This document shows positions 47 to 48,170 of a DNA stretch of 64,000 nucleotides, in pieces. How positions within the stretch are numbered: position 1 is the first letter of the stretch; each line of letters starts with the position of its first letter. The stretch covers positions 22,984 through 86,983 of the forward strand of contig SYHD01000215.1 in NCBI GenBank assembly GCA_005799265.1, written 5' to 3'. The DNA is from Planctomycetia bacterium. GTDB taxonomy: Bacteria > Planctomycetota > Planctomycetia > Gemmatales > Gemmataceae. The notes beneath the pieces are model-generated. The model ran no database searches. It was not told the origin of the DNA and saw only the letters and a list, made by a program, of their open reading frames with translations. The position numbers and the translations under genes were made by a program.

Positions 47-1492
47 ATGGACATGAACCACGTTGACACTCCGCAGACTCGCTGTCACGCCGGCGTCGCG
101 CGTTGCGACATCACGCCGCCGGTGGGTATCTATCATCGCATGTGGGGGGCCGCGACACATGACCGCGCCACTGGCGTGCATCGTCCGCTCTTGGCGACGG
201 CGCTCTGGCTGCAGCCGACGGCGGGCGATGCGTCGCAGGCCCAACTCGTGATCGCATTGGATCATTGCGTCATCGACAGCGTCGAGATGACGCGGTTGTG
301 CGAGGCCGTCTGCCAGGCTACTTCGCTACAAGAAAGCCAGGTGCAGATCACGCTCTCGCACACGCATGGTTCCGGCTGGATGTCGCGGGCACGCGCACAC
401 TTCCCCGGCGGCGATCTTATCGGGCCGTACCTCGACGACGTCGCCGGCAAGCTTGCAATACTCGCCGTACAAGCGAAGCAGGCGCTGCAACCGGCGAGCA
501 TCGTCTACGGCCAGGGACGTTGCGATCTCGCAGGCCAGCGCGATTATTGGGACGCGGAGCATCGGCAATTCGTGTGCGGATTCAATCCCGCGGGGGTCGC
601 AGACGATACGGTGACAGTCGCGCGGATCACTGGCGCGGATGGCAAGATCACAGCGACGCTTGTCAACTACGCGTGCCATCCGACGACGCTGGCGTGGGAC
701 AATACCGCGATCAGCCCCGATTACGTCGGCGCCATGCGCGAGGTCGTTGAACAGGCGACTGGCGCCCCGTGTCTTTTTGTGCAAGGCGCTTCGGGCGATC
801 TTGGCCCGCGGGAAGGGTTCGTCGGCGACCCTGCGATTGCGGATCGCAACGGTCGGCAACTCGGCTACGCCGCCTTGAGTGCGCTCGAACCGCTGCCCCC
901 GGCGGGAACGCGCTTCGTCTATGCAGGGCCGGTCGTTTCGGGCACGACCATCGGCACCTGGAAGCATCAAACGCTCGACGCGAACACTCGAACGCAACAG
1001 GAGCGTTGGCAGACGAAACAGTGGTTGGTCGAGTTGCCGTATCGACACGATTTGCCAGCGCTCGAGGAAACGAAAGACGCACATCGCCGTCACCAAGCGG
1101 AGGAAGAGAAAGCGCGGGCCGCCGGCGATGCGCAGAAGGCGCGTGATTGCCGGGCGCTGGTAGAACAGATGAATCGCCGCATTCATCGGCTTTCGTCGCT
1201 TCCGGCGGGCAAAGTTTTTCCTTACCGTGTCAATCTCTGGCGGCTCGGCGATGCGCTGTGGGTGCTCGTGCCGGGTGAATTGTATCAGACGTTTCAGGTG
1301 ACGCTGCGCAAGCGATTTCCGGGCCAGCCGATCATCGTCGCGACGTTGACAGGCGATTGGCAGCCGGGCTATGTGCCAATGGCGTCGAGCTATGGCTATG
1401 GAATCTATCAGGATCTGATCGCGTGCGTTGGCCCGGGATCGCTTGAGGTATTGATCGAAAATCTTGCGCGTGAAATCGGCGCAATGGTTTAG
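47..1492 (+). CDS. Hypothetical hydrolase, neutral/alkaline (non-lysosomal) ceramidase N-terminal-domain-like
   Basis: 481-aa ORF with ATG at 47 preceded by GAAGAGGG. The N-terminus CHAGVARCDITPPVGIYHRMWGAA resembles the start of ceramidase-like hydrolases (recalled similarity, not searched). The stop TAG (1490-1492) lies inside palindrome 1487-1537. Confidence 0.45.
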   Translation: MDMNHVDTPQTRCHAGVARCDITPPVGIYHRMWGAATHDRATGVHRPLLATALWLQPTAGDASQAQLVIALDHCVIDSVEMTRLCEAVCQATSLQESQVQITLSHTHGSGWMSRARAHFPGGDLIGPYLDDVAGKLAILAVQAKQALQPASIVYGQGRCDLAGQRDYWDAEHRQFVCGFNPAGVADDTVTVARITGADGKITATLVNYACHPTTLAWDNTAISPDYVGAMREVVEQATGAPCLFVQGASGDLGPREGFVGDPAIADRNGRQLGYAALSALEPLPPAGTRFVYAGPVVSGTTIGTWKHQTLDANTRTQQERWQTKQWLVELPYRHDLPALEETKDAHRRHQAEEEKARAAGDAQKARDCRALVEQMNRRIHRLSSLPAGKVFPYRVNLWRLGDALWVLVPGELYQTFQVTLRKRFPGQPIIVATLTGDWQPGYVPMASSYGYGIYQDLIACVGPGSLEVLIENLAREIGAMV

Positions 1493-1537
1493 CCACGGGT
1501 CGTAGACCCGGGCGGTTCTGCGAACCGCGGCTAAACG
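1487..1537. repeat. Palindromic repeat, PAL-1 subfamily b (GTTTAGCC...GGCTAAAC)
   Basis: GTTTAGCCACGGGTCGTAGA-cccgggcggt-TCTGCGAACCGCGGCTAAACG: 20-nt arms with 3 mismatches. Same architecture, loop length and arm sequence as 32023-32074. Lies between convergent genes. Confidence 0.9.
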
Positions 1538-3568: not shown

Positions 3569-3572
3569 GAAA

Positions 3573-3947
3573 TTACTTCTTTTCCTTCGAGTCTTCCTTC
3601 GCAGCGCCGCCTTTCTTGAGCACTTTGAAGGACGTGATGGCCGGGCCGTGATTGGTGCCGACCCATGCCAGCTCGACCCGTTCGCCGACCTTGGCGGCGC
3701 GCACGGCGGCCAAAATCGACGGAACCGGCCCCTTGATCTTGGCGTCGTACATCACGTGGTAGGAACGGGCTTTTTCCTCGCCAGGCGCCAGGACTTCGAT
3801 CATCGTGTTCCTGCCGTCTTTCGTGGCCTTGTGCGCTTTCACCTCGCCGATGACGGTGCCGGACGTCTTTGGTTCCTGGGCGCTGGTGGCGCCGAAAAGA
3901 ACCATCAGGCCGAAGAGCAGGGTGATGCCGATTACTCTTGTGAACAT
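3573..3947 (-). CDS. Small secreted hypothetical protein
   Basis: 124-aa ORF ending 4 nt before the start of the cytochrome gene on the same strand. Signal peptide MFTRVIGITLLFGLMVLFGATSAQE. No family recognised. Confidence 0.6.
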   Translation of the reverse strand: MFTRVIGITLLFGLMVLFGATSAQEPKTSGTVIGEVKAHKATKDGRNTMIEVLAPGEEKARSYHVMYDAKIKGPVPSILAAVRAAKVGERVELAWVGTNHGPAITSFKVLKKGGAAKEDSKEKK

Positions 3948-3978
3948 GGGATTCTCCTAATCTACATAAGAAAGCCAT

Positions 3979-4044
3979 GGGCCGTTTAGCGCTCGAATTG
4001 AAGCGCCGGCGATCTGGCGCTTCAATTCGAGCGCTAAACGGCCC
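3979..4044. repeat. Palindromic repeat, PAL-1 subfamily c (perfect 29-bp arms)
   Basis: GGGCCGTTTAGCGCTCGAATTGAAGCGCC (3979-4007) is the exact reverse complement of 4016-4044, with an 8-nt loop. Lies in the intergenic gap between two co-directional minus-strand genes. Confidence 0.95.
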
Positions 4045-4053
4045 GTGGCGGAA

Positions 4054-9147: not shown

Positions 9148-9255
9148 AACCGCGAAACACCCAAATAACACGAAAAAGGGCCCTCCGGAAAGGAAATCCG
9201 CACCGCCTTCTTTTTCGTGTTATTCGGGTGTTTCGTGGTTGTCTGCGTTTTTTTT
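9148..9255 (+). terminator. Very long AT-rich hairpin followed by T8 (candidate intrinsic terminator or solitary palindromic element)
   Basis: Arm 9148-9178 AACCGCGAAACACCCAAATAACACGAAAAAG pairs with 9210-9240 (31 nt, one G.T and one A.C). The loop is 31 nt. TTTTTTTT at 9248-9255. Lies 18 nt after the stop of 8276-9130. Confidence 0.5.
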
Positions 9256-9337: not shown

Positions 9338-9403
9338 CGTGGCAGACGATTCCAATCGTGTGATCCGCTGGCGGAATGTCACACGATTGAACTCGGATGC
9401 CAC
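9338..9403 (+). repeat. PAL-3 element copy A (CGTGGCAGACGATTCCAATCGTGTGA ... TCACACGATTGAACTCGGATGCCAC)
   Basis: The first 27 nt are nearly identical to copy B (46018-46088, minus orientation). Inner stem CGTGTGA/TCACACG is perfect. The element ends 16 nt before ATG 9420 (GGAGG RBS in between). Confidence 0.8.
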
Positions 9404-20230: not shown

Positions 20231-20289
20231 CGTTTAGCGTTCGCAGTAAACCTGCGAGCCGCCTGGCGTTTCACTGCGAACGCTAAACG
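20231..20289. repeat. Palindromic repeat, PAL-1 subfamily a (CGTTTAGCGTTCGCAGT arms)
   Basis: CGTTTAGCGTTCGCAGT (20231-20247) is the perfect reverse complement of 20273-20289, with a 25-nt loop that extends the stem (AAAC/GTTT). Lies in the intergenic gap between co-directional minus genes. Confidence 0.9.
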
Positions 20290-22236: not shown

Positions 22237-22428
22237 CGCAGCGATTGTGGTTCATCTTGTTTTTTCGGCCTCCTTTATTTACCCTTGTTCCGGTAGCCAA
22301 GCGGCACCGTCGCGCCAGGATGGCGTGATGCCCCCCAAGCGATGCCGCTCCTTTGCGGCGCCGGCGCGAGTAGGTCCTCTTCGCGATTCACCGACGCCAG
22401 CTTAGCTTCGCACAGCAAGGATGCTTGC

Positions 22429-24138
22429 ATGTTCCGATTCGACATCGTCTCGCTCGTCGGACTGCTTCTGATCGCGCTGATTGGCAACGGCTATGCCGAT
22501 CCGCAAGATGAAAAAAATGACCGCATCCAGAAAACTCTTGCATTGCAGACGGCACTGGCACAGGCTCGCGTTCATCTGACGGACCGGCAGTCGCAAAAAG
22601 CCGTCGAGATCCTCGAACAGCAACTCCCCCATGTGAATGGCAACAACGCCTACCTGATCGCTCTGCGCCAGGCGTACCGCGCCTACATCATGGATCTATA
22701 CTTCGCGGGCCAACCGGAACAGGCCCGCCGCTATCACGAACGGCTCTGCATTATCGATCCGAGTGCCGCCAACGACCGGGCCTTGCAACCCCAACAGCCT
22801 GATCCAGAGCCGCGCAAGTTCGAGCCGGATCCTCCCAAGCAGGCGGCCAAGCTGCCATTTCCGCTCTTCAAGTTGCCGAGCTTTAACATTCCCTTCGCCA
22901 AACGAGACGAGAAAGGCCCGCCGACTGTGAAGCTGTCGATGGCACGTGGCGTGTCCGATGACGCGGTCATCGACGATCCCTTCGCGGTCCATAATCGGCG
23001 TGAAGCGATCGCGGTCGGTCCGTCTCCGGTTGTCAATCCGGCCCGAGCGCGGGACCTGCTCATGCGCGGCGCCGATGAATTTCGCAACGAACGCTACGCC
23101 GAGGCGCGTCACTGCTTCGAGCAGGCATATCAGGCGGATCAATCGACGTTGCCGACATACAAGACGCAGTGGGCGTATTGCATCATCAAAGGGGTCGCTG
23201 ACGTGATGGAGCAACCGGGCGTCTTGCCGGCACGCTTACCCGAACTCAAGCAGCAAGTCGAAGGCGCGATTGGCATGTCGCCGGGAAACTTCATGGCGGT
23301 GGGACAGCAGCTCCTGGAGCGGCTCGAACAGAAAGCCAAGCACAACGCCGTGCTGCCGCGGGGTCAGACTTTCAAGATCAAGCACTGGGGCAAGAATGAG
23401 GGAGGCTGGCTGGTCGCAGAGACGCCGCACTTCCACATTTTTCATCGCAAGGACAATGACTTCGCCGAGCGTGTCGCCCGGATCGCCGAACACACACGTT
23501 TAACTATGTATCGCAAATGGTTCAACAGTGACGGTCATGAATGGCAGCCCGTTTGCGACCTGATCCTGCATGCCAACGGCGCCGATTATACGCACATGAC
23601 CGGCGTCCAGGGCAACTCGCCGGGGCATTCGCGTATCGAGAGCGATCCCTCTGGTCGCGTCATTGATCGCCGCATGGATCTCCGTCTCGATATTCCGCGC
23701 ATGATGGACGACGTCCTGCCTCACGAAACCACGCACGTCGTGCTCGCGGGCATGTTCGGCAACGCCCCGGTGCCGCGCTGGGCGGATGAAGGCATCGCGG
23801 TTCTTTCGGAGCCGGATGACAAGGTCAATCAGCATCGCCAGAATTTGCTCAAGCATCACAAGGACGGTCTGCTCTTCGGCCTGAAGCAGCTAATGGAGTT
23901 GAAAGACTATCCGCACCCGCGTCAGATCTCCGCGTTCTACGCCCAGAGTGTCGTCCTGGTCGAATTCCTCACGCACAAACGCGGGCCCAAGACGCTGACC
24001 GATTTCGTGAAAGACTCCGTCCACTACGGTTACGACACGTCCTTACAACGCCATTATGGCTTGACGTTCGCCCAGCTCGAACAGGAATGGCGCACTCAAA
24101 TCATCGACAATCCGCAACGTCTGGCGGCGACGAAGTGA
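22429..24138 (+). CDS. Membrane-anchored TPR-like + peptidase MA-like (HExxH) protein
   Basis: ATG 22429 gives MFRFDIVSLVGLLLIALIG. C-terminal HETTHVVLAGMFGN...WADEGIAVLSE (HExxH plus a distal Glu). Confidence 0.6.
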   Translation: MFRFDIVSLVGLLLIALIGNGYADPQDEKNDRIQKTLALQTALAQARVHLTDRQSQKAVEILEQQLPHVNGNNAYLIALRQAYRAYIMDLYFAGQPEQARRYHERLCIIDPSAANDRALQPQQPDPEPRKFEPDPPKQAAKLPFPLFKLPSFNIPFAKRDEKGPPTVKLSMARGVSDDAVIDDPFAVHNRREAIAVGPSPVVNPARARDLLMRGADEFRNERYAEARHCFEQAYQADQSTLPTYKTQWAYCIIKGVADVMEQPGVLPARLPELKQQVEGAIGMSPGNFMAVGQQLLERLEQKAKHNAVLPRGQTFKIKHWGKNEGGWLVAETPHFHIFHRKDNDFAERVARIAEHTRLTMYRKWFNSDGHEWQPVCDLILHANGADYTHMTGVQGNSPGHSRIESDPSGRVIDRRMDLRLDIPRMMDDVLPHETTHVVLAGMFGNAPVPRWADEGIAVLSEPDDKVNQHRQNLLKHHKDGLLFGLKQLMELKDYPHPRQISAFYAQSVVLVEFLTHKRGPKTLTDFVKDSVHYGYDTSLQRHYGLTFAQLEQEWRTQIIDNPQRLAATK

Positions 24139-24145
24139 TCCATCA

Positions 24146-24206
24146 GTTAGTCGGACGCGCAAGCGACGGACATAGAAAAAATCCGTCGCTTGCGCGTCCG
24201 GCTAAC
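24146..24206. repeat. Palindromic repeat, PAL-2 (GTTAG(T/C)CGGACGCGCAAGCGACGGA arms), intergenic copy
   Basis: 25-nt arms 24146-24170 and 24182-24206 with a single T.G position; the 11-nt loop is CATAGAAAAAA. Lies between convergent genes. It contains the TAG stop (24202-24204) of the minus-strand gene. Confidence 0.95.
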
Positions 24207-26442
24207 GGCTGATCGCCTCGATCTGGTAGCTGACGGATTTCTCGCCATGCCACACGACAGGCATTGCAGCGCCGTCGAGCAAGTCGATCATCAAATTCCG
24301 ACATTGCGCCTTTGATAGATAGCGGTCCGTCCAGTCTTCGGGTGAAAGCTTGATACGTTGCGGCCGATCGAACGTGATGCGCACGCTGCCGCCGAAGCGT
24401 GTCAACTTCACGGCGGTGATGTGATCCTGATATTCCGTCGTCGCCGCGGCCCATTGACCCTTCGATTGCAATTCGATGATCGTCGCGACTTCCTTGGCCT
24501 GCCTGCCTGCTTCCTTGAGAAAAATAGGAATCGTCTCGTACAGTTCTGTAACTTTGTCCTGCCCTGTCGAATTCGCCGAGGTTTCGATGCGGACCTTGCT
24601 TGAATCAAACGTGAAGGTGCGCGTGAGCTGGATGCGACCTTCGAGAACCTTGCCCTGGCCCAATTGTTCGGCCGGGAGCGTGCCGGTGATCTTGACGATG
24701 CTGGCGTTCTTGTCCTGACGAGTGATCACTTCGGGTTGGCGAATGCGCGCGGACGTGAAGACCTTGCCGTTGTACTTGGCGCCGCTGACCGCGTGCAGAG
24801 GCCAGAGGCGCCAGTCTTCGACGAGGTCAAAGCTTTTGTCCCAGGAGTTGCCGCCGCGCCGGCCGAGAATGACCGCGCCGGTTGTCGGGGTCCAGAACGC
24901 GGAGAGTTGCCCGCCGCCGAAGCCAAGTGGGCCGGCGAATTTGAAATGGCCGTCTTCCAGGCTTGGATAGCCGATGGGGCCGCCGTGCACGATGGCGGCA
25001 TAAGTGTTTTGTTTGGCGACAGTAAACGCGCCGGCGAAATCGCGCACAAAGTTCTCGGTACGCAGAAACGGCGATTTCAACCACGGGGAGTTTTCGTCCT
25101 GCAGCTTGAGCCGTTTCGCATGACTGCCGGGTGGATAGAATTCGTAGCCGTAGTTGACCGTGGCGGGAAAATTGAACGATTGCCACAAGCGCCAGCGCCA
25201 GGGATGCGAGGTCAGTTGTTCATTCTTGAGAAAGCCTCCTCCCTTGGGATTGACGGGGTTCTCCGCCAACTGTTGGCGAAACGCGCTGGCACGCTGATCG
25301 GGAGCTTTCCTGAGGTCATCCGCGGTCGGCAACTTGTTCAAATAAACCGCTTCATCGGTCACCAGTGAGGCGAAGGAGTCGCGCGCGATGCCCCATTCCC
25401 ATTGGTCACCCCAGGCGTCGCTCGATGTGCGCGAATTGAAATGGGTGGGCCCAATGTATCGCCCGTCCGGCTCCGGCAGGCACAGATGCGCACGCAAGCG
25501 ATAACAGCGCGTGACCGCGTCCTTGGCGAATGGCCAATCGCTGGCGAGCGCCGCCCAGGTCGCGAAGAAATTGCTCATGCCCTGGTAGCCCATATCGATG
25601 CCGCGCTGATCGAGAAAAAATCCCGCCGGGTGAAAGTGTTGCGGATCGGTGAACAGCCGTCGCGCATACGCCTCGGCGTCTTTCGTGAACGCCGGATCTT
25701 TGAGCGCCTGGCTGACGTACCACAGTCCGACCGTGGCGACGACTTCCAGGTTCGGCTCCTCTCCCTCCGGCCCCCAGTCGAACACGCGCTGCCCCATGCG
25801 CCGCAACCCGGTTTCATATGCTTTTTGCACATCAACGGGCAGCTGGTCCTTGAAGCCCGCATACGGATGCGCAAACAGGATCAATTGGCTGCCGAACCAG
25901 TCCGAGCGACTGCCGCCGCGTTCGGGATGGTGTTCGAGCTGATCGTCGAGCATCATCAGATGAATGCTCGCCGTGACGAAAGCGCGCAGCTTCAAGGCGC
26001 GATTGTGATAGTAAGGATTGCCTGGTTGTTTCCAGGTGACGAAGGCGATCAACGCCTCCGGACAAACCGGCGGCACGTGGACGCCTTCCGGGCGCTCCAA
26101 TGCGCTCAAGACGAACAGCGCCGGTGGCGCGTTTACCGCCGGGGCGCCGCGTTTGGTCCCGACCAGCGGCTGAGCCATAAGCGTGAACAGGTGCTGGCGA
26201 TATTGGTACTCGGCATCGGCGGGCGTCGGCTGAGACGTGATCGGCTCCTTCACGCCGTGGGTAAAGTCCTTCTCGGATAGCGTTGCCATGAACGCACGGA
26301 GTTGCTTTTGATACGCATGCTCCTGCGGCAGGGTTGCCCGCGGCGGCGGCGGCACGGGCACTTTTCGACCCCCCGCGCGAACTGCGGGATTGCCGAGGAT
26401 CAACAGGCCAAGAATGCACGCCGCGATTTTTTGTGCGTTCAT
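24202..26442 (-). CDS. Large secreted hypothetical protein
   Basis: ATG 26442 gives MNAQKIAACILGLLILGNPAVRAG. 746 aa with no family recognised. The upstream 65 codons of the track ORF are discarded. Confidence 0.6.
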   Translation of the reverse strand: MNAQKIAACILGLLILGNPAVRAGGRKVPVPPPPRATLPQEHAYQKQLRAFMATLSEKDFTHGVKEPITSQPTPADAEYQYRQHLFTLMAQPLVGTKRGAPAVNAPPALFVLSALERPEGVHVPPVCPEALIAFVTWKQPGNPYYHNRALKLRAFVTASIHLMMLDDQLEHHPERGGSRSDWFGSQLILFAHPYAGFKDQLPVDVQKAYETGLRRMGQRVFDWGPEGEEPNLEVVATVGLWYVSQALKDPAFTKDAEAYARRLFTDPQHFHPAGFFLDQRGIDMGYQGMSNFFATWAALASDWPFAKDAVTRCYRLRAHLCLPEPDGRYIGPTHFNSRTSSDAWGDQWEWGIARDSFASLVTDEAVYLNKLPTADDLRKAPDQRASAFRQQLAENPVNPKGGGFLKNEQLTSHPWRWRLWQSFNFPATVNYGYEFYPPGSHAKRLKLQDENSPWLKSPFLRTENFVRDFAGAFTVAKQNTYAAIVHGGPIGYPSLEDGHFKFAGPLGFGGGQLSAFWTPTTGAVILGRRGGNSWDKSFDLVEDWRLWPLHAVSGAKYNGKVFTSARIRQPEVITRQDKNASIVKITGTLPAEQLGQGKVLEGRIQLTRTFTFDSSKVRIETSANSTGQDKVTELYETIPIFLKEAGRQAKEVATIIELQSKGQWAAATTEYQDHITAVKLTRFGGSVRITFDRPQRIKLSPEDWTDRYLSKAQCRNLMIDLLDGAAMPVVWHGEKSVSYQIEAISR

Positions 26443-26622
26443 CGGATTCCCTTGTGTGATGGGGCGTTTGAACGTGGACATTGTAGCGTGAATCCTTCGG
26501 AAATCTCGTGCATCGGGGCCGGCGGTAGAAGATAATCGAAGTGTCGTCGCGACGACCGATTTCGGTCGTGATGTGTGAAACCGCAAGCTTCGATTGGGGA
26601 TTCTCCTTTTGAGCGCATCCAC

Positions 26623-27792
26623 ATGATCGTCAATCATTCAGTCCTCTCTCTCGCAGCCTTGATCACTGCCGCCGTCGTGCCCGCGTTTGCGCAATTGATC
26701 GGCTACACCGAACTGCGCACGAATCTGCCCGGCGGCCGCCACGCCAATGTCCGCACCATGCGTGCCGCTGTCGTTCGCGGCGATGGCATGGGCCGACGCC
26801 TGCTCGCCGCGGACTTGGCCAACCAGCCCGATGCGTGGACGCAGTTCGCCGGTTGGTCGCCCGATGGTGCAACGGCGATCCTCGGACGCGGCTGGCAAAG
26901 CCCGGACAACGCGAAATGGGAAGAAGAACACAAGACCTTCCGTTTCACCAAGGACGGTTGGCTTCTTGATTCATACCTCGTCGATCTGGCGTCCGGAAAA
27001 ACAGAAAACGTGACGGCCGTCGAACGTGTCAGCTTCTACAACGGCGGACTTTTCTTTTGGCCGAACGACCCGACCAAGCTTGGCTTCACCGCCCTCATCA
27101 ACGGCAACTCGCATCCGTTTCGCATGGATCGCGATGGCCGTAACAAGGTCGATCTTACCAAGGCCTCGCGAGAGTTCGCCTACGGGTTCAACAGTTCACG
27201 CGACGGCAAACGGATCGCGTATCACAAGAATTATCACGTGTATCTCGCGGACGCCGACGGCTCGAACGTCGTCCACGTCAAGACGGGCAAGCCATTCAAC
27301 TTCGTGCCGACCTGGTCGCCCGACGGCAAGTGGGTGCTGTTCCTCAGTGGCGAGCACTACAACTGCCACCCGCATCTTGTCGGATCCGACGGCACGGGGC
27401 TGAAGAAACTCGCCGATCGCGGCGGCTACAAGGGCGTGATCGAATTCCTCGATGTCTTCGATTTCCATCACGGCAGCAGTGACACGCCCGTCTGGGCCGC
27501 GGATGGCAAATCGATCTTTCACGCCGGCCAAGTCGGCAAGAACGTCGAGCTGTTTCAGGTCGAACTCGACGGGAAAAGCACCCAGCTCACGAAGTCCGCA
27601 GACGGTTCCGTTCATTATCATCCGCAGCCATCCCCGGACGGCAAAGCGCTCGTCTACGGCTCGAAACGTGATGGCGTCCGACAACTCTACGTGATGAACC
27701 TCGTTGGTCGCAGCGAGACGCGCTTGACCGATCTCAAGGCCGGGTACGCCGCAATGTGGCCACACTGGCAGCCGACGCCGAACAAGAAATGA
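26623..27792 (+). CDS. Secreted PD40/TolB-like beta-propeller protein
   Basis: ATG 26623 gives MIVNHSVLSLAALITAAVVPAFAQ. Repeated WSPDG / PSPDGK blades. Confidence 0.65.
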   Translation: MIVNHSVLSLAALITAAVVPAFAQLIGYTELRTNLPGGRHANVRTMRAAVVRGDGMGRRLLAADLANQPDAWTQFAGWSPDGATAILGRGWQSPDNAKWEEEHKTFRFTKDGWLLDSYLVDLASGKTENVTAVERVSFYNGGLFFWPNDPTKLGFTALINGNSHPFRMDRDGRNKVDLTKASREFAYGFNSSRDGKRIAYHKNYHVYLADADGSNVVHVKTGKPFNFVPTWSPDGKWVLFLSGEHYNCHPHLVGSDGTGLKKLADRGGYKGVIEFLDVFDFHHGSSDTPVWAADGKSIFHAGQVGKNVELFQVELDGKSTQLTKSADGSVHYHPQPSPDGKALVYGSKRDGVRQLYVMNLVGRSETRLTDLKAGYAAMWPHWQPTPNKK

Positions 27793-30931: not shown

Positions 30932-32020
30932 ATGCGGAATCGAATCCTCGGTAAAACCGACCTCGTCGTCAGCGAGCTTGCGTTCGGCAGCCTCTTCACC
31001 TCGTCCTTGGGCCCCGGCTTCGATGAAAGCCGCGCCGCTGTTCACAAGGCGCTCGAACTCGGCATCAACTACTTCGACACTGCGCCCGCCTACGCCAATA
31101 GCGAGGAGGTGCTCGGAAAAATTATGCACGGCATCAAGACGCCGACGATTCTCTCGACCAAACTCGGCGGCCGCCCGCAACCGTTCGAGCCGCGCAACTC
31201 GAAACAATTGCTCGACTCCGCCAAGGAAAGTCTGCGGCTGTTGCACCGCGACGTCATCGACATTCTATTCGTGCACGAGCCGGATCGCCCGCAACAATAC
31301 GATTGGTGGAGCGACCCCGAAGCGGCCTACGGTCCTGTCATCGATGTGCTAGAGCAGCTCAAGAAGCAAGGAGTGATTCGCTACACGGGCCTGGGCGGCA
31401 CGACGATGGCTGAGATGGCGCATCTCATTCGCTCAGACCGCTTCGATGTCGTCCTGACCGCGTTCAACTACAGCGCCCTCTTTCGCGAGGCGACGCACGA
31501 GGTTCTGCCCGCCGCGAAAGAGCGCAACATGGGCATCGTGCTGGGCTCCGTCTTGCAGCAAGGCGGGCTGGGCAGGCGTTATGACGTCGTGGTTCGCGCG
31601 AAGCCGGCGTGGCTGTCGAAAGCACGGCAGCAGCAGTTCCTCGCGTTCTATGAGCTGCTTGACGAGAGCGGGTTATCGATTGTCGAATTGTGCTTGCGCT
31701 TCGCGATTTCGGAAATCACACAGTTAGCCGGACGCGCAAGCGACGGACCGGGCCATCCGTCGCTTGCGCGTCCGGCTAACAATCTGGGCCATTGCGTGCT
31801 CATCGGCCCGAAGACGGCGAAGCAGGTCGAGGATTCCATCAATGCAGTCGAGAAGGGCCCGTTGCCGTCGGATGTGACGAAGCGGCTCGATGAGATCGCG
31901 GCGATGGTGCCGTATCGTCCATTCGAGGAGCCGATGATTCTGCCGCTCAATCGGCCGCGCGATTATTGGGGGCCGGGAAGTTCGAACGTCGGCGCTGGGG
32001 CGAAGGTCGGTAAGCTGTGA
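30932..32020 (+). CDS. Aldo/keto reductase carrying a 20-codon palindrome-derived insertion
   Basis: AKR motifs are present: NYFDTAPAYANSE (Asp/Tyr), LSTKLG (Lys), FVHEPD (His) and C-terminal CVLIGPKTAKQVEDSI. Residues QLAGRASDGPGHPSLARPAN are encoded by repeat 31721-31780. Confidence 0.85.
   Translation: MRNRILGKTDLVVSELAFGSLFTSSLGPGFDESRAAVHKALELGINYFDTAPAYANSEEVLGKIMHGIKTPTILSTKLGGRPQPFEPRNSKQLLDSAKESLRLLHRDVIDILFVHEPDRPQQYDWWSDPEAAYGPVIDVLEQLKKQGVIRYTGLGGTTMAEMAHLIRSDRFDVVLTAFNYSALFREATHEVLPAAKERNMGIVLGSVLQQGGLGRRYDVVVRAKPAWLSKARQQQFLAFYELLDESGLSIVELCLRFAISEITQLAGRASDGPGHPSLARPANNLGHCVLIGPKTAKQVEDSINAVEKGPLPSDVTKRLDEIAAMVPYRPFEEPMILPLNRPRDYWGPGSSNVGAGAKVGKL
31723..31780. repeat. Palindromic repeat, PAL-2, intragenic in-frame copy (in AKR gene)
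   Basis: Perfect 25-nt arms GTTAGCCGGACGCGCAAGCGACGGA / TCCGTCGCTTGCGCGTCCGGCTAAC with an 8-nt loop CCGGGCCA. Confidence 0.95.
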
Positions 32021-32022
32021 TT

Positions 32023-32074
32023 CGTTTAGCCGCGGTTCGCAGAGCCGAGCGGTTCTACGAACCGCGGCTAAACG
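32023..32074. repeat. Palindromic repeat, PAL-1 subfamily b
   Basis: CGTTTAGCCGCGGTTCGCAGA-gccgagcggt-TCTACGAACCGCGGCTAAACG, 21-nt arms with 1 mismatch. Lies between convergent genes. It contains the TAG stop (32068-32070) of the DUF1501 gene. Confidence 0.95.
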
Positions 32075-33504
32075 AGGATCTGATTGACAACCCGTGCTGG
32101 CTCGACGCCGGTCAAACGCATGTCCAATCCCTGATGGCGGTACGTCAAACGCGTGTGATCGATGCCCAGCGTGTGCAGCATGGTTGCGTGCAGATCGCGC
32201 ACGTGGACCGGGTTTTCGACAGCGCGATAACCCAACTCGTCGGTCGCGCCATAGGTGACGCCCCCCTTGATGCCGCCGCCCGCGAGCCACATCGAGTAGC
32301 CGCGGATGTGATGGTCGCGGCCTGGCGCTGAGCCCTTGAATTGCACCATTGGCGTGCGGCCGAACTCACCGCCCCAAATGATAAGCGTATCGTCGAGCAT
32401 GCCGCGAGCCTTGAGATCGCGAACAAGCGCGGCGGAGGGGCCGTCGCAATGGCCGGCGCAGATGCGCATGGTGTTGACGATGCTATCGTGCGTGTCCCAG
32501 TCGCGATGGTAGAGCTGGATGAAGCGGACACCGCGCTCGGCCAAACGACGTGCGAGTAGGCAATTATAGCCGAAGCTGCCGTCGGCCGCGCTGACGCCGT
32601 ACATCTCCTTGACGTGGCGAGGCTCGTTGGCGATGTCCATCAGCTCCGGCACGCTCGTTTGCATGCGGAAGGCCATCTCGTACTGGGCAATGCGCGTCTC
32701 GACTTCGGGATTGCGCGAGCGCTCGTTTTGCACCAGATTCAAGTCGCGAATCGCATCAATCGAGTCACGTTGCAAATTGCGTGATACGCCTGGCGGATTG
32801 CTCAGGTAGTGAACCGGATCGCCCGTGGAAGAGAATGGCACGCCCTGGTAGCGCCCCGGCAGAAAGCCCGCCGCCCATTGACGCTGCGAAATCGGCTGTG
32901 GATTGCGGCCGCCGAAGCTCGTCAACACGATGAAGCCGGGCAGGTTGTCGCTTTCGCTGCCCAGGCCGTAGGTGATCCACGAGCCCATGCTTGGCCGGCC
33001 GGAGATCTGCGTGCCGGTGTTCATCAGCGTGTGGGCGGGATCGTGATTGATCTGATCGGTGTGCATCGAGCGGACGATGGCGATGTCGTCGGCGATGCGG
33101 CTGATGTTCGGCAAAAGCTCTGATATCTCTTGCCCCGACTGCCCGGCCCGACGAAAGCGAAACTGTGGCGCGAAACATTTTAGCTCGGCGTTTTGAAGCT
33201 GGGCGATCGGCTGGCCGCGCGTGAACGATTCCGGCATCGGTTGCAGGTGTAGGCGCGCGAGCGCCGGCTTGTGATCGAACAATTCCAGATGCGACGGGCC
33301 GCCGGACATGTACAGGAAGATGACGCGCTTTGCCGTCGGCGCGAAGTGCGGCAAGTTGTTAGCCGAACGCGCAAGCGACGGCTGGGCTTGTTCGTCGCTT
33401 GCGCGTCCGGCTAACGTCATTGACGCCAGGGCTGCGGCGCCGAAGCCGATGGACGAGTCGCCGAGGAAGGCGCGGCGCGTGAGGTTGAGCTTCGTGTTGT
33501 ACAT
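32068..33504 (-). CDS. DUF1501 family protein (sulfatase-like, Tat signal) carrying a 20-codon palindrome-derived insertion
   Basis: ATG 33504 after GGAGAT. TRRAFLGD twin-arginine motif. SGGPSHLELFDHKP, HRDWDTH and GGEFGRTP motifs. Residues TLAGRASDEQAQPSLARSAN are encoded by repeat 33358-33417. Confidence 0.85.
   Translation of the reverse strand: MYNTKLNLTRRAFLGDSSIGFGAAALASMTLAGRASDEQAQPSLARSANNLPHFAPTAKRVIFLYMSGGPSHLELFDHKPALARLHLQPMPESFTRGQPIAQLQNAELKCFAPQFRFRRAGQSGQEISELLPNISRIADDIAIVRSMHTDQINHDPAHTLMNTGTQISGRPSMGSWITYGLGSESDNLPGFIVLTSFGGRNPQPISQRQWAAGFLPGRYQGVPFSSTGDPVHYLSNPPGVSRNLQRDSIDAIRDLNLVQNERSRNPEVETRIAQYEMAFRMQTSVPELMDIANEPRHVKEMYGVSAADGSFGYNCLLARRLAERGVRFIQLYHRDWDTHDSIVNTMRICAGHCDGPSAALVRDLKARGMLDDTLIIWGGEFGRTPMVQFKGSAPGRDHHIRGYSMWLAGGGIKGGVTYGATDELGYRAVENPVHVRDLHATMLHTLGIDHTRLTYRHQGLDMRLTGVEPARVVNQILV
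33358..33415. repeat. Palindromic repeat, PAL-2, intragenic in-frame copy (in DUF1501 gene)
   Basis: 23-nt arms 33358-33380 / 33393-33415 with one mismatch (A versus G); the 12-nt loop is GCTGGGCTTGTT. Confidence 0.9.
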
Positions 33505-33534
33505 GGACTTATCTCCGAGCCGCATGTGGCGAAA

Positions 33535-35862
33535 TCAGTTTCGCGTCAAAGCCTCATCGAGATTGAACAGCACGCGTGCCACGTTTGTCCATGCCGCCAG
33601 TTCGACGACGTTGACGCCGTCCGCCCGCGGCGTCTGGCCTACGCTCACGAGCTTGGCCGCAGCGGCGGGATCAGCGGCGAAGTGCTTGTGGCTCTGCGCG
33701 AGCAGTCTGCCAACGAGGGCAGCCTCGCGATCTTGCGGCGAGCGCGACAGCACTTGCCGCCACGCCCAGCGGATGCGTGCGGCTTCGTCGTTGCCGCCCT
33801 CGCGCAGGATGCGCGTTGCGAACACGCGTGAGCATTCGGCGAACGTCGGATCGTTCAACAGCACGAGCGCGGCGAGCGGCGTATTGCTGATCGGCCGCTG
33901 GGCAGTGCATTCTTCGCGCGTCGGGGCGTCGAACGCCTTCAGCATCGGGTGCAGATAGGTGCGCTGCCAATGGGTGTAGACGCCGCGGCGGTATTGATCA
34001 AGCCCCTTGTCGGCGACGTAGGTCCGTTTCGGGAAGTTGAGGAATGCATAATAGCCGTCTGGCTGTTGCGGCCTCACGCTGCGTCCGCCGACGCGATCAA
34101 CCAGAAGCCCACTGACGACGAGCGACTGATCGCGAATCATCTCCGCCGGCAAACGAAAACGCGACTGGCGCGCGTAGAGACGGTTATCGGGATCGAGCTT
34201 GCGGAGTTCGTCGGATTCGAGCGAGTCCTGGCGATAGGTGCTTGAGGTAACGAGAAGCTTGACGAGCTGCTTGACATTCCAACCGCTGGCGACGAATTCG
34301 ATCGCGAGCCAATCGAGCAGCTCCGGGTGGGTTGGCCATTCACCCTGCGAGCCCGCGTCCTCCAGTGATTTCGACAGACCGTTGCCGTGGAAGAGGTACC
34401 ACAGGCGATTGACGAACACGCGCGCCGTCTGCGGATGTTCGGGCGATGTGAGCCATTTCGCGAGGTCGAGGCGAGTTGCGCGGTCCTTCCTGGCAATCTG
34501 CTTCATGAACTGAGGCACGCCGGGCTGGACAAGTTCGCCCTTGGTGTCCAGCCAGTCGCCGCGGCTGAGAACGCGAATCGTGCGCGGTGCGACGGCTTTC
34601 GTGATCATCGTCATGCGCTGGCGTTTTTCGAGCTCGGCCAGCAGCTTCTTTTGCGCGGCTAGCTCTTCCACGGCATCGGCTTTGAGTCCGGCGATGCGTT
34701 TGCGCACGGACTCAACTTCCTCACGATCAAGCGGCGACAGTACGTCGATCTCCGGCGGGCGTTTGGTGGGCGTCGCGTCGGGGCCCTTGTAGGCGCCGCG
34801 TTCGTCGATGTCGGCAAAAAACGCGGCGATGCGATAGAAGTCCTTCTGGGTGTACGGATCGTAGCGATGATTGTGGCACTGGGCGCAGCCGATGGTCGCG
34901 CCCATCCACACGGCGCCGAAGTTGCGCACGCGGTCCGCGGAGTAGATTGCGAGGTACTCCTTGTCTTGCGCCCCGCCTTCATGCGTCGTCTGCAGCAAGC
35001 GATTGTAGCCCGTCGCGATGAGCTGATCGGTCGTCGGCTGCGGCAACAAATCCCCGGCGAGTTGCTCCACCGTAAAGCGATCGAAAGGCATGTTGTCGTT
35101 GAACGCCTTGAGAACGTAATCGCGATAAGGCGAGATGTGATGTTCCTGATCGCCGTGATAGCCCACCGTGTCGGCGTAGCGCACCAGGTCGAGCCAGTAC
35201 ATCGCCATGCGTTCGCCGTAGTGCGGCGATGACAACAGGGCATCGACGAGCCGTGCGTAGGCGTCGGGCCGCGCGTCCTTGACGAATGCCTCAACCTGAG
35301 CCGGGGATGGCGGCAGCCCGAGCAGGTCGAAATAAAGCCGGCGCATCAACATGGCCTTGTCGGCTTCCGGCGACGGCGAGACCCCATGCTGGTCGAGCCG
35401 GGCCAGGATGAACGCGTCGATTGGATTGCGTGGCCACGCACCAGCCAGCTTACGCTGGCCGTTCGCCTTGGGCACATCTGGGCGTTTGGGAGGCGCGAAC
35501 GACCAGTGAAGTTGGAATGCGCCGCCTTGGTCGATCCAACGGCGAATCAACTCGATCTCCGCCTTTGTCAGGGTCTTGCCCGATTTCTTGGGCGGCATGC
35601 GTTTGTCGGCGTCGTCGGTGGTGATGCGCGCGAACAGGTCGCTCTCGGCGGGCTTGCCGGCGACGATGACTTTGGCGCCTTCGTCGGTGTCGAGCCGTAG
35701 CTTGGCCTTGCGATGCGTCGAATCGGGACCGTGGCACTGGAAGCACTTATCCGAGAGGATGGGACGGATATCACGGTTGAATTCGACTTTGGGCGCGGAT
35801 TGGGCATGCGCGCCCAGCGGCAAACAAATGAAAACCACCAGAGTGCAGAGCCGGTGAATCAT
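33535..35862 (-). CDS. PSCyt (planctomycete cytochrome c) + DUF1549 + DUF1553 protein
   Basis: Signal peptide, then ILSDKCFQCHGPD (CxxCH). NPIDAFILARL (DUF1549-like). C-terminal FDAPTREECTAQRPISNTPLAALVLLNDP (DUF1553-like). Lies directly upstream of the DUF1501 gene, the classic pairing. Confidence 0.85.
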   Translation of the reverse strand: MIHRLCTLVVFICLPLGAHAQSAPKVEFNRDIRPILSDKCFQCHGPDSTHRKAKLRLDTDEGAKVIVAGKPAESDLFARITTDDADKRMPPKKSGKTLTKAEIELIRRWIDQGGAFQLHWSFAPPKRPDVPKANGQRKLAGAWPRNPIDAFILARLDQHGVSPSPEADKAMLMRRLYFDLLGLPPSPAQVEAFVKDARPDAYARLVDALLSSPHYGERMAMYWLDLVRYADTVGYHGDQEHHISPYRDYVLKAFNDNMPFDRFTVEQLAGDLLPQPTTDQLIATGYNRLLQTTHEGGAQDKEYLAIYSADRVRNFGAVWMGATIGCAQCHNHRYDPYTQKDFYRIAAFFADIDERGAYKGPDATPTKRPPEIDVLSPLDREEVESVRKRIAGLKADAVEELAAQKKLLAELEKRQRMTMITKAVAPRTIRVLSRGDWLDTKGELVQPGVPQFMKQIARKDRATRLDLAKWLTSPEHPQTARVFVNRLWYLFHGNGLSKSLEDAGSQGEWPTHPELLDWLAIEFVASGWNVKQLVKLLVTSSTYRQDSLESDELRKLDPDNRLYARQSRFRLPAEMIRDQSLVVSGLLVDRVGGRSVRPQQPDGYYAFLNFPKRTYVADKGLDQYRRGVYTHWQRTYLHPMLKAFDAPTREECTAQRPISNTPLAALVLLNDPTFAECSRVFATRILREGGNDEAARIRWAWRQVLSRSPQDREAALVGRLLAQSHKHFAADPAAAAKLVSVGQTPRADGVNVVELAAWTNVARVLFNLDEALTRN

Positions 35863-46017: not shown

Positions 46018-46088
46018 CGTGGCATACGATTGGAATCGCGTGATTGCGATGGCAATCCTTAATCACACGATTGGAATCGTATGCCACG
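46018..46088 (-). repeat. PAL-3 element copy B (full 71-nt palindrome)
   Basis: Minus strand: CGTGGCATACGATTCCAATCGTGTGATT-aaggattgccatcgc-AATCACGCGATTCCAATCGTATGCCACG. The arms are complementary except for the central CC and one T/C. The element ends about 20 nt upstream of ATG 45997, and its conserved ATGCCAC ends 21 nt upstream. Confidence 0.85.
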
Positions 46089-46092
46089 TTTT

Positions 46093-47391
46093 TCAGCCCA
46101 CAATCTCCTGCACCGGCAGCGCCTCGCGCAAGAATGGCCGCATCCGGGCGTCGGTCGTGTCGATGCCCACCAGCCGATACAAGCTCGCCGCGAACTGCGC
46201 GGGACCGACCGGTGTGTGCGCGGGGCGTGAACCAGTGGCGTCACTGGCGCCGACGATGCGGCCCCCTTCGAGACCGCCGCCCGCCAGCAGATACGTGAAG
46301 CAATACGGAAAGTGATCGCGCGCTCCGAATCGATTGACGCGCGGCGTGCGGCCGAACTCGCCGCCGGCGACGATCAGCGTGTTCTGCAACATGCGGCGTT
46401 CTTGCAGATCGGTCAAGAGCGCGGTGAGGCCCTGATCAAGCCGTGGGCACAAATGCTGTTCCATGCGGACCATGCCGCCCAGGTCGGCGCCGTGCACGTC
46501 CCAGGCGTCCCAGGCGGGGCCGTCGTACCATTTGATTTGCACGAATCGGCTCCCCGCTTGTACGAGCCGGCGGGCCAGTAAGCACGATTGGCCGAACAGA
46601 TTGGCGCCGTAGCGGTCGCGCAACGCTTCGTTCTCGCGCGCCAGGTCGAATGCGTCGCGCACCTGCGTCGACGTCAGCATGTCGACAGCACGTTGATAGT
46701 TTTGATCCATGCGTTCGATGGCTTCGTTGGCGTGCGCCGTCTGACGGAAGCGATCGACCGCAGTCAAGAGTTCGCGGCGCTGGCTGAAGCGGTCGGCCTG
46801 CATGTCGGCCGAGAGTTGGAACTGCGGCAGCGCGGCGCGGTTGCCCGTCGGGTCGGCGATCTCGACGGGGAAGAACGGGGCGCCCAGACGGCCGCCGCCA
46901 ACGCCGAGCCGCGAGCCGATGTGTACATACGGCGGCATGTTGCCGCGGTAGCCCTGGATGCGCGAGATGACGGCGCCGTATGATGTCGTCTCGCCGGGGA
47001 AGCCGGTCAGCATCGGGATCGGCGAATGGGCGTCGATGTTGTGCGACATCGACCGCACCAGCACGCACTTGTCCATGTGCCGCGACAGGCGCGGCAACAG
47101 CTCGCAGATCTGCATGCCGGGGACGTTAGTCTGGATCGGGCCGTATGGGCCGCGAATCGTGTCGGGGGTATCGGGCTTGGGATCGAAAGTCTCGAAGTGA
47201 CTCGGGCCACCGTCGAGCCAGAGAAAGATGACCGAGACATCGCGGCTGCCGGCGCCGGGCGATGCGGCCGCTTTCGTGCGGAACCAATCCGCGAGCGTAA
47301 GCCCGGCGATGCCCAGCCCGCCGACGGTGAGCATGTCGCGTCTTGTCAGGCCGCTGCAATTGCGAACCGCGGTTTTGCCGATGGTGAACAT
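46093..47391 (-). CDS. DUF1501 family protein (second copy, no adjacent DUF1553 partner)
   Basis: ATG 47391. LTRRDMLTVGG Tat-like motif. LDGGPSHFETFDPKPD, WDVHG and GGEFGRTPRVN. Confidence 0.85.
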   Translation of the reverse strand: MFTIGKTAVRNCSGLTRRDMLTVGGLGIAGLTLADWFRTKAAASPGAGSRDVSVIFLWLDGGPSHFETFDPKPDTPDTIRGPYGPIQTNVPGMQICELLPRLSRHMDKCVLVRSMSHNIDAHSPIPMLTGFPGETTSYGAVISRIQGYRGNMPPYVHIGSRLGVGGGRLGAPFFPVEIADPTGNRAALPQFQLSADMQADRFSQRRELLTAVDRFRQTAHANEAIERMDQNYQRAVDMLTSTQVRDAFDLARENEALRDRYGANLFGQSCLLARRLVQAGSRFVQIKWYDGPAWDAWDVHGADLGGMVRMEQHLCPRLDQGLTALLTDLQERRMLQNTLIVAGGEFGRTPRVNRFGARDHFPYCFTYLLAGGGLEGGRIVGASDATGSRPAHTPVGPAQFAASLYRLVGIDTTDARMRPFLREALPVQEIVG

Positions 47392-47417
47392 GAGCTGCCC
47401 CCCCCCCTGAAATATCG

Positions 47418-48170
47418 TCACGCGGAGCATGCCGATAACGGTCTTACCTGAACGATGAATTGTGCAAATCCGAGTGGGTCCAACGTGCGCTCGATGCGAA
47501 ACGAGCGCCCGAGTACGTCGGAACGCAGCCAGCCTTCCTCGGCCGGCGTCGCTTGATACTCTTCATTTGTGAGTCGAAGTATGTCGAAGACTACGCCGTC
47601 ACCGCGCGCGTCGACAAGCCAATACTCGGGAATCTGTGCCTTCCGGTACAAATCGCGCAGCGTCTTGAGATCCTTGACCTTCGAGCCGTCGCTGACGATC
47701 TCCAGGATGATGTCTGGAGTTCCCTCAAGTCGCATGTAGCCCAGGTTTTGGCCGGGGATCAGCCGCAGTCTCCCGGCCTGCATCGTGGCCCAATGATAGT
47801 AAAGGCCGTCGGGTTCGGTTGACAGGTTGGCCGCCTCGTTAACGAGCAGCATTCGATCCGGCACGAAACGTCCGGTTGGGTATTGTACCAAGAAAGAGTA
47901 GAACATGCCATTGAAGGCCTGTTTGGCCTGGTTGTGCGTAAGGAATTCTTCCATGCTCGCGTCCACCCAGATTTTGCCGTCAAGATAAGAAACCCAGCCA
48001 TTCTCCGGGTACGCGTCAGATTCTACCCAGCGGCGATAGTCATCCAGGCTATCGATCCAACCGGGTATCGTGATCTTGTTCTCGACAACAACATCGGCGC
48101 GGCGCGTAGTCGCCTTCACTGTAGGCACAGCGACGCTCGTTTGCGGCATAGGTGAGAGGACAGTGCTCAT
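47418..48170 (-). CDS. Uma2 (DUF820) family endonuclease-like protein
   Basis: The C-terminal core PDIILEIVSDGSKVKDLKTLRDLYRKAQIPEYWLVD fits the Uma2 PD-(D/E)xK pattern (PD..vEv.S......d...K...Y...gv.eYW.vD). Confidence 0.7.
   Translation of the reverse strand: MSTVLSPMPQTSVAVPTVKATTRRADVVVENKITIPGWIDSLDDYRRWVESDAYPENGWVSYLDGKIWVDASMEEFLTHNQAKQAFNGMFYSFLVQYPTGRFVPDRMLLVNEAANLSTEPDGLYYHWATMQAGRLRLIPGQNLGYMRLEGTPDIILEIVSDGSKVKDLKTLRDLYRKAQIPEYWLVDARGDGVVFDILRLTNEEYQATPAEEGWLRSDVLGRSFRIERTLDPLGFAQFIVQVRPLSACSA

Follow-up and report, generated by a model that had tools for sequence, protein, structure and literature searches.

The window analysed here is a stretch of 64,000 nucleotides from a Planctomycetia bacterium of the Gemmataceae (assembly GCA_005799265.1, contig SYHD01000215.1), in which the gene of an aldo/keto reductase (AKR) contains a short palindrome that we call PAL-2. 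An earlier reading of this DNA from its letters alone (hereafter the original prediction) had pointed to a perfect palindrome with 25-bp arms and an 8-nt loop, translated in frame within an otherwise intact gene, and had likened its behaviour to that of the Rickettsia palindromic elements (RPEs). The features of the window that bear on PAL-2 are listed in Table 1.

Table 1. PAL-2 copies, their host genes and related palindromes in the window.
Feature	Position	Strand	Details
Host gene, aldo/keto reductase, 362 aa	30932..32020	+	PF00248; PAL-2 insert at about residues 263-284
PAL-2, minimal form	31723..31780		arms 31723-31747 and 31756-31780, 25 nt each; loop 31748-31755, 8 nt
PAL-2 copy	33358..33415	.	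3 arm mismatches, 8-nt loop; minus-strand translation LAGRASDEQAQPSLARSAN
Host gene, DUF1501 (PF07394) protein	32068..33525	-	gene-caller start 33504
PAL-2 copy	24146..24206	.	1 mismatch, 11-nt A-rich loop; between convergent open reading frames (ORFs) 22342..24138 (+) and 24202..26637 (-)
Sister-type palindromes, 50-57 nt	1487-1536, 3984-4039 (extended 3974-4049), 20232-20288, 32024-32073		

The two arms within the AKR gene pair at 25 of 25 positions around the loop CCGGGCCA, as confirmed by reading the sequence, by a pattern search and by a repeat finder. The 58-mer forms one hairpin with a stem of 25 bp, whose folding energy is −36.4 kcal/mol for DNA (z = −11.1) and −53.3 kcal/mol for RNA. 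A single arm, in which a GTTAG tail is joined to a 6-bp stem that is interrupted and closed by a GCAA loop (CCG..CGC-GCAA-GCG..CGG), folds weakly (−5.8 kcal/mol, z = −1.65 to −1.73). Its plus-strand translation is LAGRASDGPGHPSLARPAN and, with the preceding CA, the 58 nt encode QLAGRASDGPGHPSLARPAN in the AKR frame. Six-frame translation leaves a single open frame per strand, both of the form LAGRASDG-xxx-PSLARPAN, and the closed frames owe their stops to the GT-TAG and GGC-TAA of the element heads, just as had been predicted; one open frame in three is nevertheless unremarkable by itself for 58 nt at 60% GC. Searched with up to three mismatches, the arm occurs six times in the window, i.e., in three PAL-2 elements, versus no match across 100 dinucleotide-preserving shuffles, and the near-identical copies expected at 24146-24206 and 33358-33415 are indeed there.

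The host protein matches the Aldo_ket_red family over residues 27-323 (E = 1.7e-43), and its catalytic tetrad (D49, Y54, K77, H115) is invariant in the orthologue alignment; the gene is intact around its insert. The best 120 AKR homologues are nearly all 339-345 aa long, versus 362 aa in the window, and a gap of 20-22 columns falls exactly at the palindrome in 18 out of 18 aligned orthologues (71-85% identical), which have IS-CPDAHT-VLIGPK where the window protein has ISEITQLAGRASDGPGHPSLARPANNLGHCVLIGPK. The suspected lineage-specific indel is thereby borne out, none of the 18 carrying a homologous segment on non-palindromic DNA; alignments to solved AKRs are likewise interrupted, at residues 259-282. 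The net gain amounts to +60 to +66 nt, with inexact boundaries, the DNA of the closest empty-site orthologue (L086, 85%) being too diverged locally.

An AlphaFold2 model built on the alignment (predicted template-modelling score, pTM, 0.80) is an (alpha/beta)8 barrel that superposes on solved AKRs with TM-scores of 0.72-0.77. In this model, residues 267-283 of the insert form a coil that follows helix 250-263 and precedes strand 288-291 (VLIG), with a per-residue confidence (pLDDT) of less than 50; this agrees with the surface loop expected before the last beta-strand. In triosephosphate isomerase (TIM) barrels, helix-to-strand connections lie on the face opposite the active site, and by this general geometry the insert would sit on the barrel face away from the catalytic residues. 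Judged from these comparisons, about 20 residues were recently added before strand VLIG in a lineage-specific manner; the enzyme is most likely functional, the extra 20 residues would not amount to a domain, and the insert is probably neutral for it.

Contig SXHH01000017.1 of a metagenome-assembled genome (MAG), GCA_005773745.1, matches the window. A sister MAG, GCA_005793545.1, has both in-frame PAL-2 copies, and among 9450 aligned nt only 3 are unlike those of the window. One of these differences, at window position 31726 (A>C, Leu>Phe in the sister MAG, L094), lies in an arm of the AKR palindrome and costs it the perfect stem. With its perfect arms in the window and one of the three differences in an arm, the AKR copy is recent and still evolving. 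Moreover, an identical 362-aa AKR protein was independently assembled in a Logan run. The source of the window is a MAG, and chimeric reads are able to create palindromes, but we give next to no credence to an assembly artefact, since the same insert is found in two MAGs and a Logan assembly and hundreds of PAL-2 copies occur in unrelated assemblies, nor to a pseudogene, the AKR ORF being intact with conserved catalytic residues.

The second in-frame copy of the window lies in the DUF1501 gene, downstream of a conserved twin-arginine (Tat-type RR) signal and upstream of the DUF1501 domain. An orthologue of 85% identity (same 90% cluster) is devoid of the palindrome: DNA anchors enclose 63 nt in the window (2 + 58 + 3) versus 45 unrelated nt in the orthologue, while homologues with at most 59% identity have a variable linker of similar length at the site and are uninformative on insertion. 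This copy is thus in frame in another gene, as predicted, and lineage-specific, but from the DNA it looks like the replacement of a linker, with a net gain of 6 codons (+18 nt), rather than a clean insertion of 20 codons. A second DUF1501 protein (L156) bears PAL-2 at the equivalent spot between signal peptide and domain, which suggests that the linker of these paralogue-rich proteins (window 32068-35862 and 46093-47430; L156) is generally permissive. As for the copy at 24146, the original prediction of an intergenic location holds insofar as it fills the gap between two convergent ORFs, but it is not simply intergenic, because its minus-strand head provides the TAG stop of the predicted ORF 24202..26637.

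Beyond the window, the arm was searched in one genome per species, and metagenomes were scanned for stretches with both arms. Among the matches listed, the arm occurs in more than 85 genome-contig stretches and PAL-2 in more than 119 further metagenome stretches (more than 200 copies overall), and nearly all of them carry the label Gemmataceae, Fimbriiglobus, Limnoglobus or Planctomycetota. Many loci are found per MAG (e.g., JAPLMQ01), as with the three copies in the window. Arms of 25-26 nt, headed (Y)GTTAGCC, are nearly invariant across genera, many MAGs and metagenomes; in the flank logos, a pyrimidine stands at −1 in 86% of half-sites and long forms have TT at −2/−1. In the 62 non-redundant paired elements of the genome scan, the arms show 0-2 mismatches, whereas the interior measures 4-221 nt, with a mode at 8 nt and long classes at 48, 76-78 and 125-134 nt. 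Copies are both intergenic, directly after stop codons or between convergent genes, and in frame, and the further genomic copies on which the original prediction depended do exist.

A few occurrences deserve separate mention. Arms were also met on contigs binned elsewhere, in a Chloroflexi MAG (L051) and an Acidobacteria MAG (L067), through either mis-binning or horizontal spread. At L046:4992-5211, two complete elements and an extra arm are packed into 220 nt spanned by a 264-aa open frame. L091:11641-11701, from IMG/VR, is the only viral-collection contig with PAL-2, near the contig end, where it could be the host flank of a prophage; with this single match, a phage reservoir is not evident. 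Finally, a doubled profile of the PAL-2 peptide, run against a database of 5.8 billion proteins, gave 9 weak hits among 729 candidates, an uninformative outcome because a 20-aa match cannot reach significance.

Outside the window, PAL-2 lies in frame in no fewer than 24 genes with Pfam support, among them those of KdpA, a LeuA-like synthase, HisRS, MutL, 3-deoxy-D-arabino-heptulosonate 7-phosphate (DAHP) synthase and a polyketide synthase. In the genome census, Pfam domains span the element or lie on both its sides in the LeuA-like synthase (L043), KdpA (L069), an ArgZ-like TIGR00300 enzyme (L068), a pterin-binding protein (L017) and the polyketide synthase (L035, in the linker between enoylreductase and ketoreductase), and on one side in L006 and L028. 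When L068 is aligned to Synechocystis ArgZ (6JUY), a gap of 19 residues coincides exactly with LAGRASDGSRSPSLARPA, and L069 aligns to E. coli KdpA in two parts that are separated at the element. The metagenome census added 21 spanning ORFs that read LAGRASDG...PSLARPAN, of which 18 are Pfam-supported, their hosts including DAHP synthase, HisRS, MutL, phosphoglucomutase, peptidase M3, an aminotransferase, an epimerase, two PSCyt2/PSD1 proteins and another DUF1501 protein. Along with the AKR, DUF1501 and TIGR00300 genes, these hosts support the likeness to RPE behaviour that had been put forward, and dozens of housekeeping genes in Gemmataceae-type planctomycetes probably have PAL-2 read through as a loop some 20 residues long.

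This residence follows a phase rule. ORFs spanning PAL-2 in the other phases have Pfam support in 0 of 7 cases, versus 18 of 21 in the open phase (Fisher p = 1e-4). When the fractions are counted on metagenome copies with enough flank to judge, 16 of 24 copies with an 8-nt loop lie in Pfam-supported genes; the same is true of 18 of 37 with a loop length of 2 mod 3, versus 0 of 26 with any other loop length (Fisher p = 8e-6). Each validated genic copy has a loop of 2 mod 3 and the peptide LAGRASDG-x-PSLARPAN, and other loop lengths or phases are never genic because they introduce TAG/TAA stops. Long-form elements are spanned solely by ORFs without Pfam support and often stand just past stop codons; long ORFs over long-form or wrong-phase copies lack Pfam support and were treated as spurious. 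As a separate observation, the stop-free frame that codes for DNA gyrase subunit A in L189 (ORF 1182-4019) contains an arm at position 3614, downstream of the C-terminal propeller repeat with the best score.

The same rule bears on the idea that the hairpin never reaches the protein, either through translational bypassing, as with mitochondrial byp elements and T4 gene 60, or through excision at the RNA level. A hairpin as stable as this one (−53 kcal/mol as RNA) within coding sequence would invite such an idea, but the Pfam-supported genic copies all keep to the single open phase, with lengths that preserve the downstream frame, whereas a skipped element would leave phase and stops unconstrained; we consider skipping very improbable.

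The cleanest comparison of a filled with an empty site comes from the TIGR00300 enzyme, whose baseline protein has 409-410 aa and reads DCGIVLDL-KKQTA-RC at the site. PAL-2 occupies this loop in two proteins, P0283 and P0284 (88% identity), while five others have another insert, PSPLTPLPxGEGK, from another palindromic repeat, and two have different inserts. The empty-site DNA, CTCGATTTG/AAAAAGCAGACG/GCC, stands against CTCGACCTG/CC + 58 nt + GAGCCGCGG/GCT when filled, i.e., a net +57 nt and no duplication. Although the P0283 and P0284 genes differ at 17.7% of nucleotides (39% of third positions), they share the same PAL-2 junction, and the arms differ at 0 of 50 positions (18 of them third-codon positions) versus 2 of 8 in the loop, whereas none of 1108 control windows is as conserved. 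In a neighbour-joining tree computed without the insert columns, the two carriers are sisters in 0 of 300 bootstraps, and 245 of 300 replicates place P0283 in a group of empty-site proteins that leaves out P0284. Since the carriers are not sisters and their arms are identical, the pattern is most simply read as repeated insertion, in recent times, into a single permissive loop. Among lineages whose proteins differ by less than 10%, this loop alternates between empty, PAL-2 and the second palindromic insert; the identity may also stem from homogenised arms or from selection acting on them. The second repeat, dispersed and of the type CCTCTCCCC-N-GGGGAGAGG, is the in-frame source of PSPLTPLPxGEGK in this loop and occurs there in at least five lineages scattered on the gene tree (L097:1915 region, L079:2456, L058, L041).

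At face value, such constancy could mean that selection preserves the arms, even within genes, for a function that they serve as DNA or RNA; for example, a protein of the host or a domesticated one might bind or cleave them, RNase III might cut them, or they might terminate transcription in both directions. The TIGR00300 arms, the near-invariance of the arm across genera and the intergenic copies right behind stop codons or between convergent genes all speak for such a site. However, recent independent insertion into non-sister carriers explains the identity without selection, the host genes are functionally unrelated, the arm mutation of the sister MAG destroys the palindrome, and Rfam at gathering thresholds has no match in the whole window; a functional site strikes us as improbable. 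We also find it doubtful that PAL-2 is non-random in the sense of targeting, or being actively kept at, particular permissive loops of conserved proteins, with arms held constant within coding sequence by homogenisation or by selection at the DNA or RNA level.

We put at roughly 0.8 the probability that PAL-2 is a family of non-autonomous mobile palindromes of Gemmataceae-type Planctomycetota, inserted in trans and sorted by selection. Two near-invariant arms enclose a variable interior, from 8 nt in the 58-nt form to about 220 nt, and new copies would spread over the chromosome through a trans-acting enzyme, without target-site duplication (TSD). A loop of 2 mod 3, in one codon phase, yields a stop-free, small and polar, Gly/Pro/Ser-rich segment, LAGRASDG-xxx-PSLARPAN, and this open phase is usable on either strand because PAL-2 is palindromic. 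Open-phase copies landing in surface loops or inter-domain linkers would be read through and persist, the AKR copy being one such survivor; in either remaining phase, translation would end at the heads (GT-TAG and GGC-TAA), and wrong-phase copies could survive only between genes or at the extreme 3' ends of genes because these heads bring stops, a copy at a 3' end being able to donate the stop codon.

Regarding the enzyme, no TSD emerged when repeats of 2-9 bp were sought at offsets 0-5 in 62 + 74 copies, where matches are close to expectation. The tag-plus-hairpin anatomy makes an enzyme of the HUH type, akin to the REP-associated tyrosine transposases (RAYTs; REP, repetitive extragenic palindrome), our leading guess, and the tag with its variable hairpin, together with the lack of TSDs, would make such a single-strand mechanism likelier than a DDE transposase. 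[quoted passage not shown] Its arms do resemble TIRs of 15-30 bp around a non-coding interior, are conserved around interiors that vary in length classes, and are lengthened by TT/AA in the long forms. Yet neither the two sets of copies nor the TIGR00300 filled and empty sites show a duplication, and no arm pair encloses a transposase in the examined loci, where no parent IS with GTTAGCCGGACGCG termini was seen either, collection scans not being suited to arms 1-2 kb apart; this alternative has, in our view, a small chance of being right.

Several results weigh against mobilisation in trans as we propose it. No HUH/Y1 (RAYT) motif was found in 1.4 Mb of PAL-2 flanks, nor any transposase among the Pfam-annotated gene calls of the window between about 27.9 and 57.4 kb. 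Between arms spaced 1-3 kb apart lie solely ordinary metabolic and housekeeping genes (PhyH, esterase, aminotransferase, DNA polymerase III delta', GyrA, TauE, M48, UbiD, kinase), with no mobiliser among them. The net inserted length varies (+57 nt in TIGR00300, +60 to +66 nt in the AKR, +18 nt as a replacement in DUF1501), so that simple insertion of a fixed unit is not demonstrated. Finally, with an identical junction and 0 of 50 arm differences in non-sister TIGR00300 lineages, purely neutral random insertion suffices only if something further is supposed, for instance that the site is a hot spot or that the arms are homogenised or under selection.

In-frame selfish palindromes are textbook knowledge for Rickettsia and are often tied to relaxed selection in small intracellular populations. 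Ogata et al. reportedly described RPE-1 to RPE-8 in 2000; RPE-1 has about 100-150 bp, is AT-rich and resides in a reduced intracellular genome, and RPEs decay along with their hosts. Like them, PAL-2 is a dispersed, multi-copy palindrome, and a large share of its copies are in frame in intact and unrelated genes, at tolerated positions where orthologues lack the segment. The likeness is one of behaviour; kinship in sequence is not expected, given composition and length, as the genic form of PAL-2 has 58 nt and is GC-rich. PAL-2 also inhabits large free-living genomes and has near-identical arms across genera. Another known system, the integron attC site, carries RYYYAAC at its 5' end and GTTRRRY at its 3' end and forms cassette arrays; it was rejected, as the polarity of PAL-2 is reversed (GTTAGCC 5' and GGCTAAC 3' on both strands) and its copies lie in conserved genes, not in arrays.

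REP doublets forming hairpins (REPINs) are said, after Bertels and Rainey, to be mobilised by RAYT transposases, and their sequences usually differ between genera. PAL-2 resembles them in having two inverted units that form a larger hairpin, in being non-autonomous, in lacking TSDs and in its conserved populations within genomes, but no RAYT lies beside any copy examined, its arms are common to several genera, and REPINs are described as extragenic (for context, see PMC8049555 and PMC5581495). The closest precedent is found in PMC3733652, which summarises the RPEs and in which Di Nocera et al. (2013) report that REPs with a GTAG or CGTC tag occur in over 80 species from 8 phyla. In several phyla, dimers inside genes contribute 20-30 aa (O. 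terrae and R. conorii have the most of them); stop codons are supplied by the termini, and long TIRs flank RAYT-like genes. PAL-2 shares with these REPs the head-to-head arrangement of tag and hairpin units, intragenic dimers of 20-30 aa, ends that often donate a TAG, a location mostly after genes or between convergent genes, and an occurrence in the Planctomycetes-Verrucomicrobia-Chlamydiae (PVC) superphylum, to which O. terrae belongs; moreover, a bias towards repair genes is noted there, and MutL is among the PAL-2 hosts. It differs from them in its tag, which is not GTAG but a GTTAG head, base-paired in the dimer (GTTTAG in the sister families of the window), in arms that form one perfect 25-bp stem while a single-arm hairpin is weak (z = −1.7), and in the two thirds of minimal copies (8-nt loop) that are genic in the metagenome census, REP dimers in genes being a minority.

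Bacterial MITEs that overlap ORFs are likewise known, such as QMITE1 of Coxiella (PMC5896051; reviewed in PMC10969869), and they too are small, non-coding and TIR-bounded elements that overlap or extend ORFs and encode short peptides. However, elements of the QMITE1 type have 150-400 bp and duplicate their target as direct repeats, while PAL-2 is much shorter and has no such duplications. PAL-2 thus behaves as the known RPEs and intragenic REP dimers do; the phenomenon itself is known, and the family is newly described. Our literature searches yielded no description of PAL-2 or of in-frame palindromes in Gemmataceae, in line with the original prediction. The behaviour is not confined to Rickettsia, though, as PMC3733652 mentions REPs in Planctomycetes and in-frame dimers in several phyla, including O. 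terrae, a PVC member.

What PAL-2 adds is that the behaviour familiar from Rickettsia is common in large genomes of free-living planctomycetes, where it touches core genes (HisRS, MutL, DAHP synthase, KdpA, LeuA-like) under a clean and testable phase rule. Two features stand out: how large a share of the minimal copies is genic in these free-living bacteria, and how constant the arms remain, nucleotide by nucleotide, inside diverged genes. The family amounts to a natural insertion scan of permissive loops across many enzymes and is a source of lineage-specific variation in protein length that annotation and alignment pipelines will misread. Furthermore, the conservation of the arms in coding DNA lets one ask whether such repeats are only tolerated or maintained.

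The window holds other palindromes. The four sister-type ones of Table 1 have a common head, GTTTAGC...GCTAAAC, but different stems, and from this they look like sister families of PAL-2, with a constant tag on a changing hairpin as in tagged REPs; arms of two of the four fold at z about −3.3. Two of the four give TAG stops to flanking genes: the one at 1487 provides the stop of ORF 47..1492 (+), and the one at 32024, which takes up the 47 nt separating the AKR gene from the DUF1501 gene, gives the latter (−) its stop. An unrelated palindromic family with arms GTGGCAKACGATTSSAATCG occurs at 9339-9403 and at 46018-46088, the latter copy between a DUF1501 gene and a PD40-repeat gene. Finally, an inverted repeat with 31-nt arms (AACCGCGAAACACCCAAATAACACGAAAAAG) and a 31-nt spacer occupies positions 9148-9240 and is AT-richer than its surroundings.

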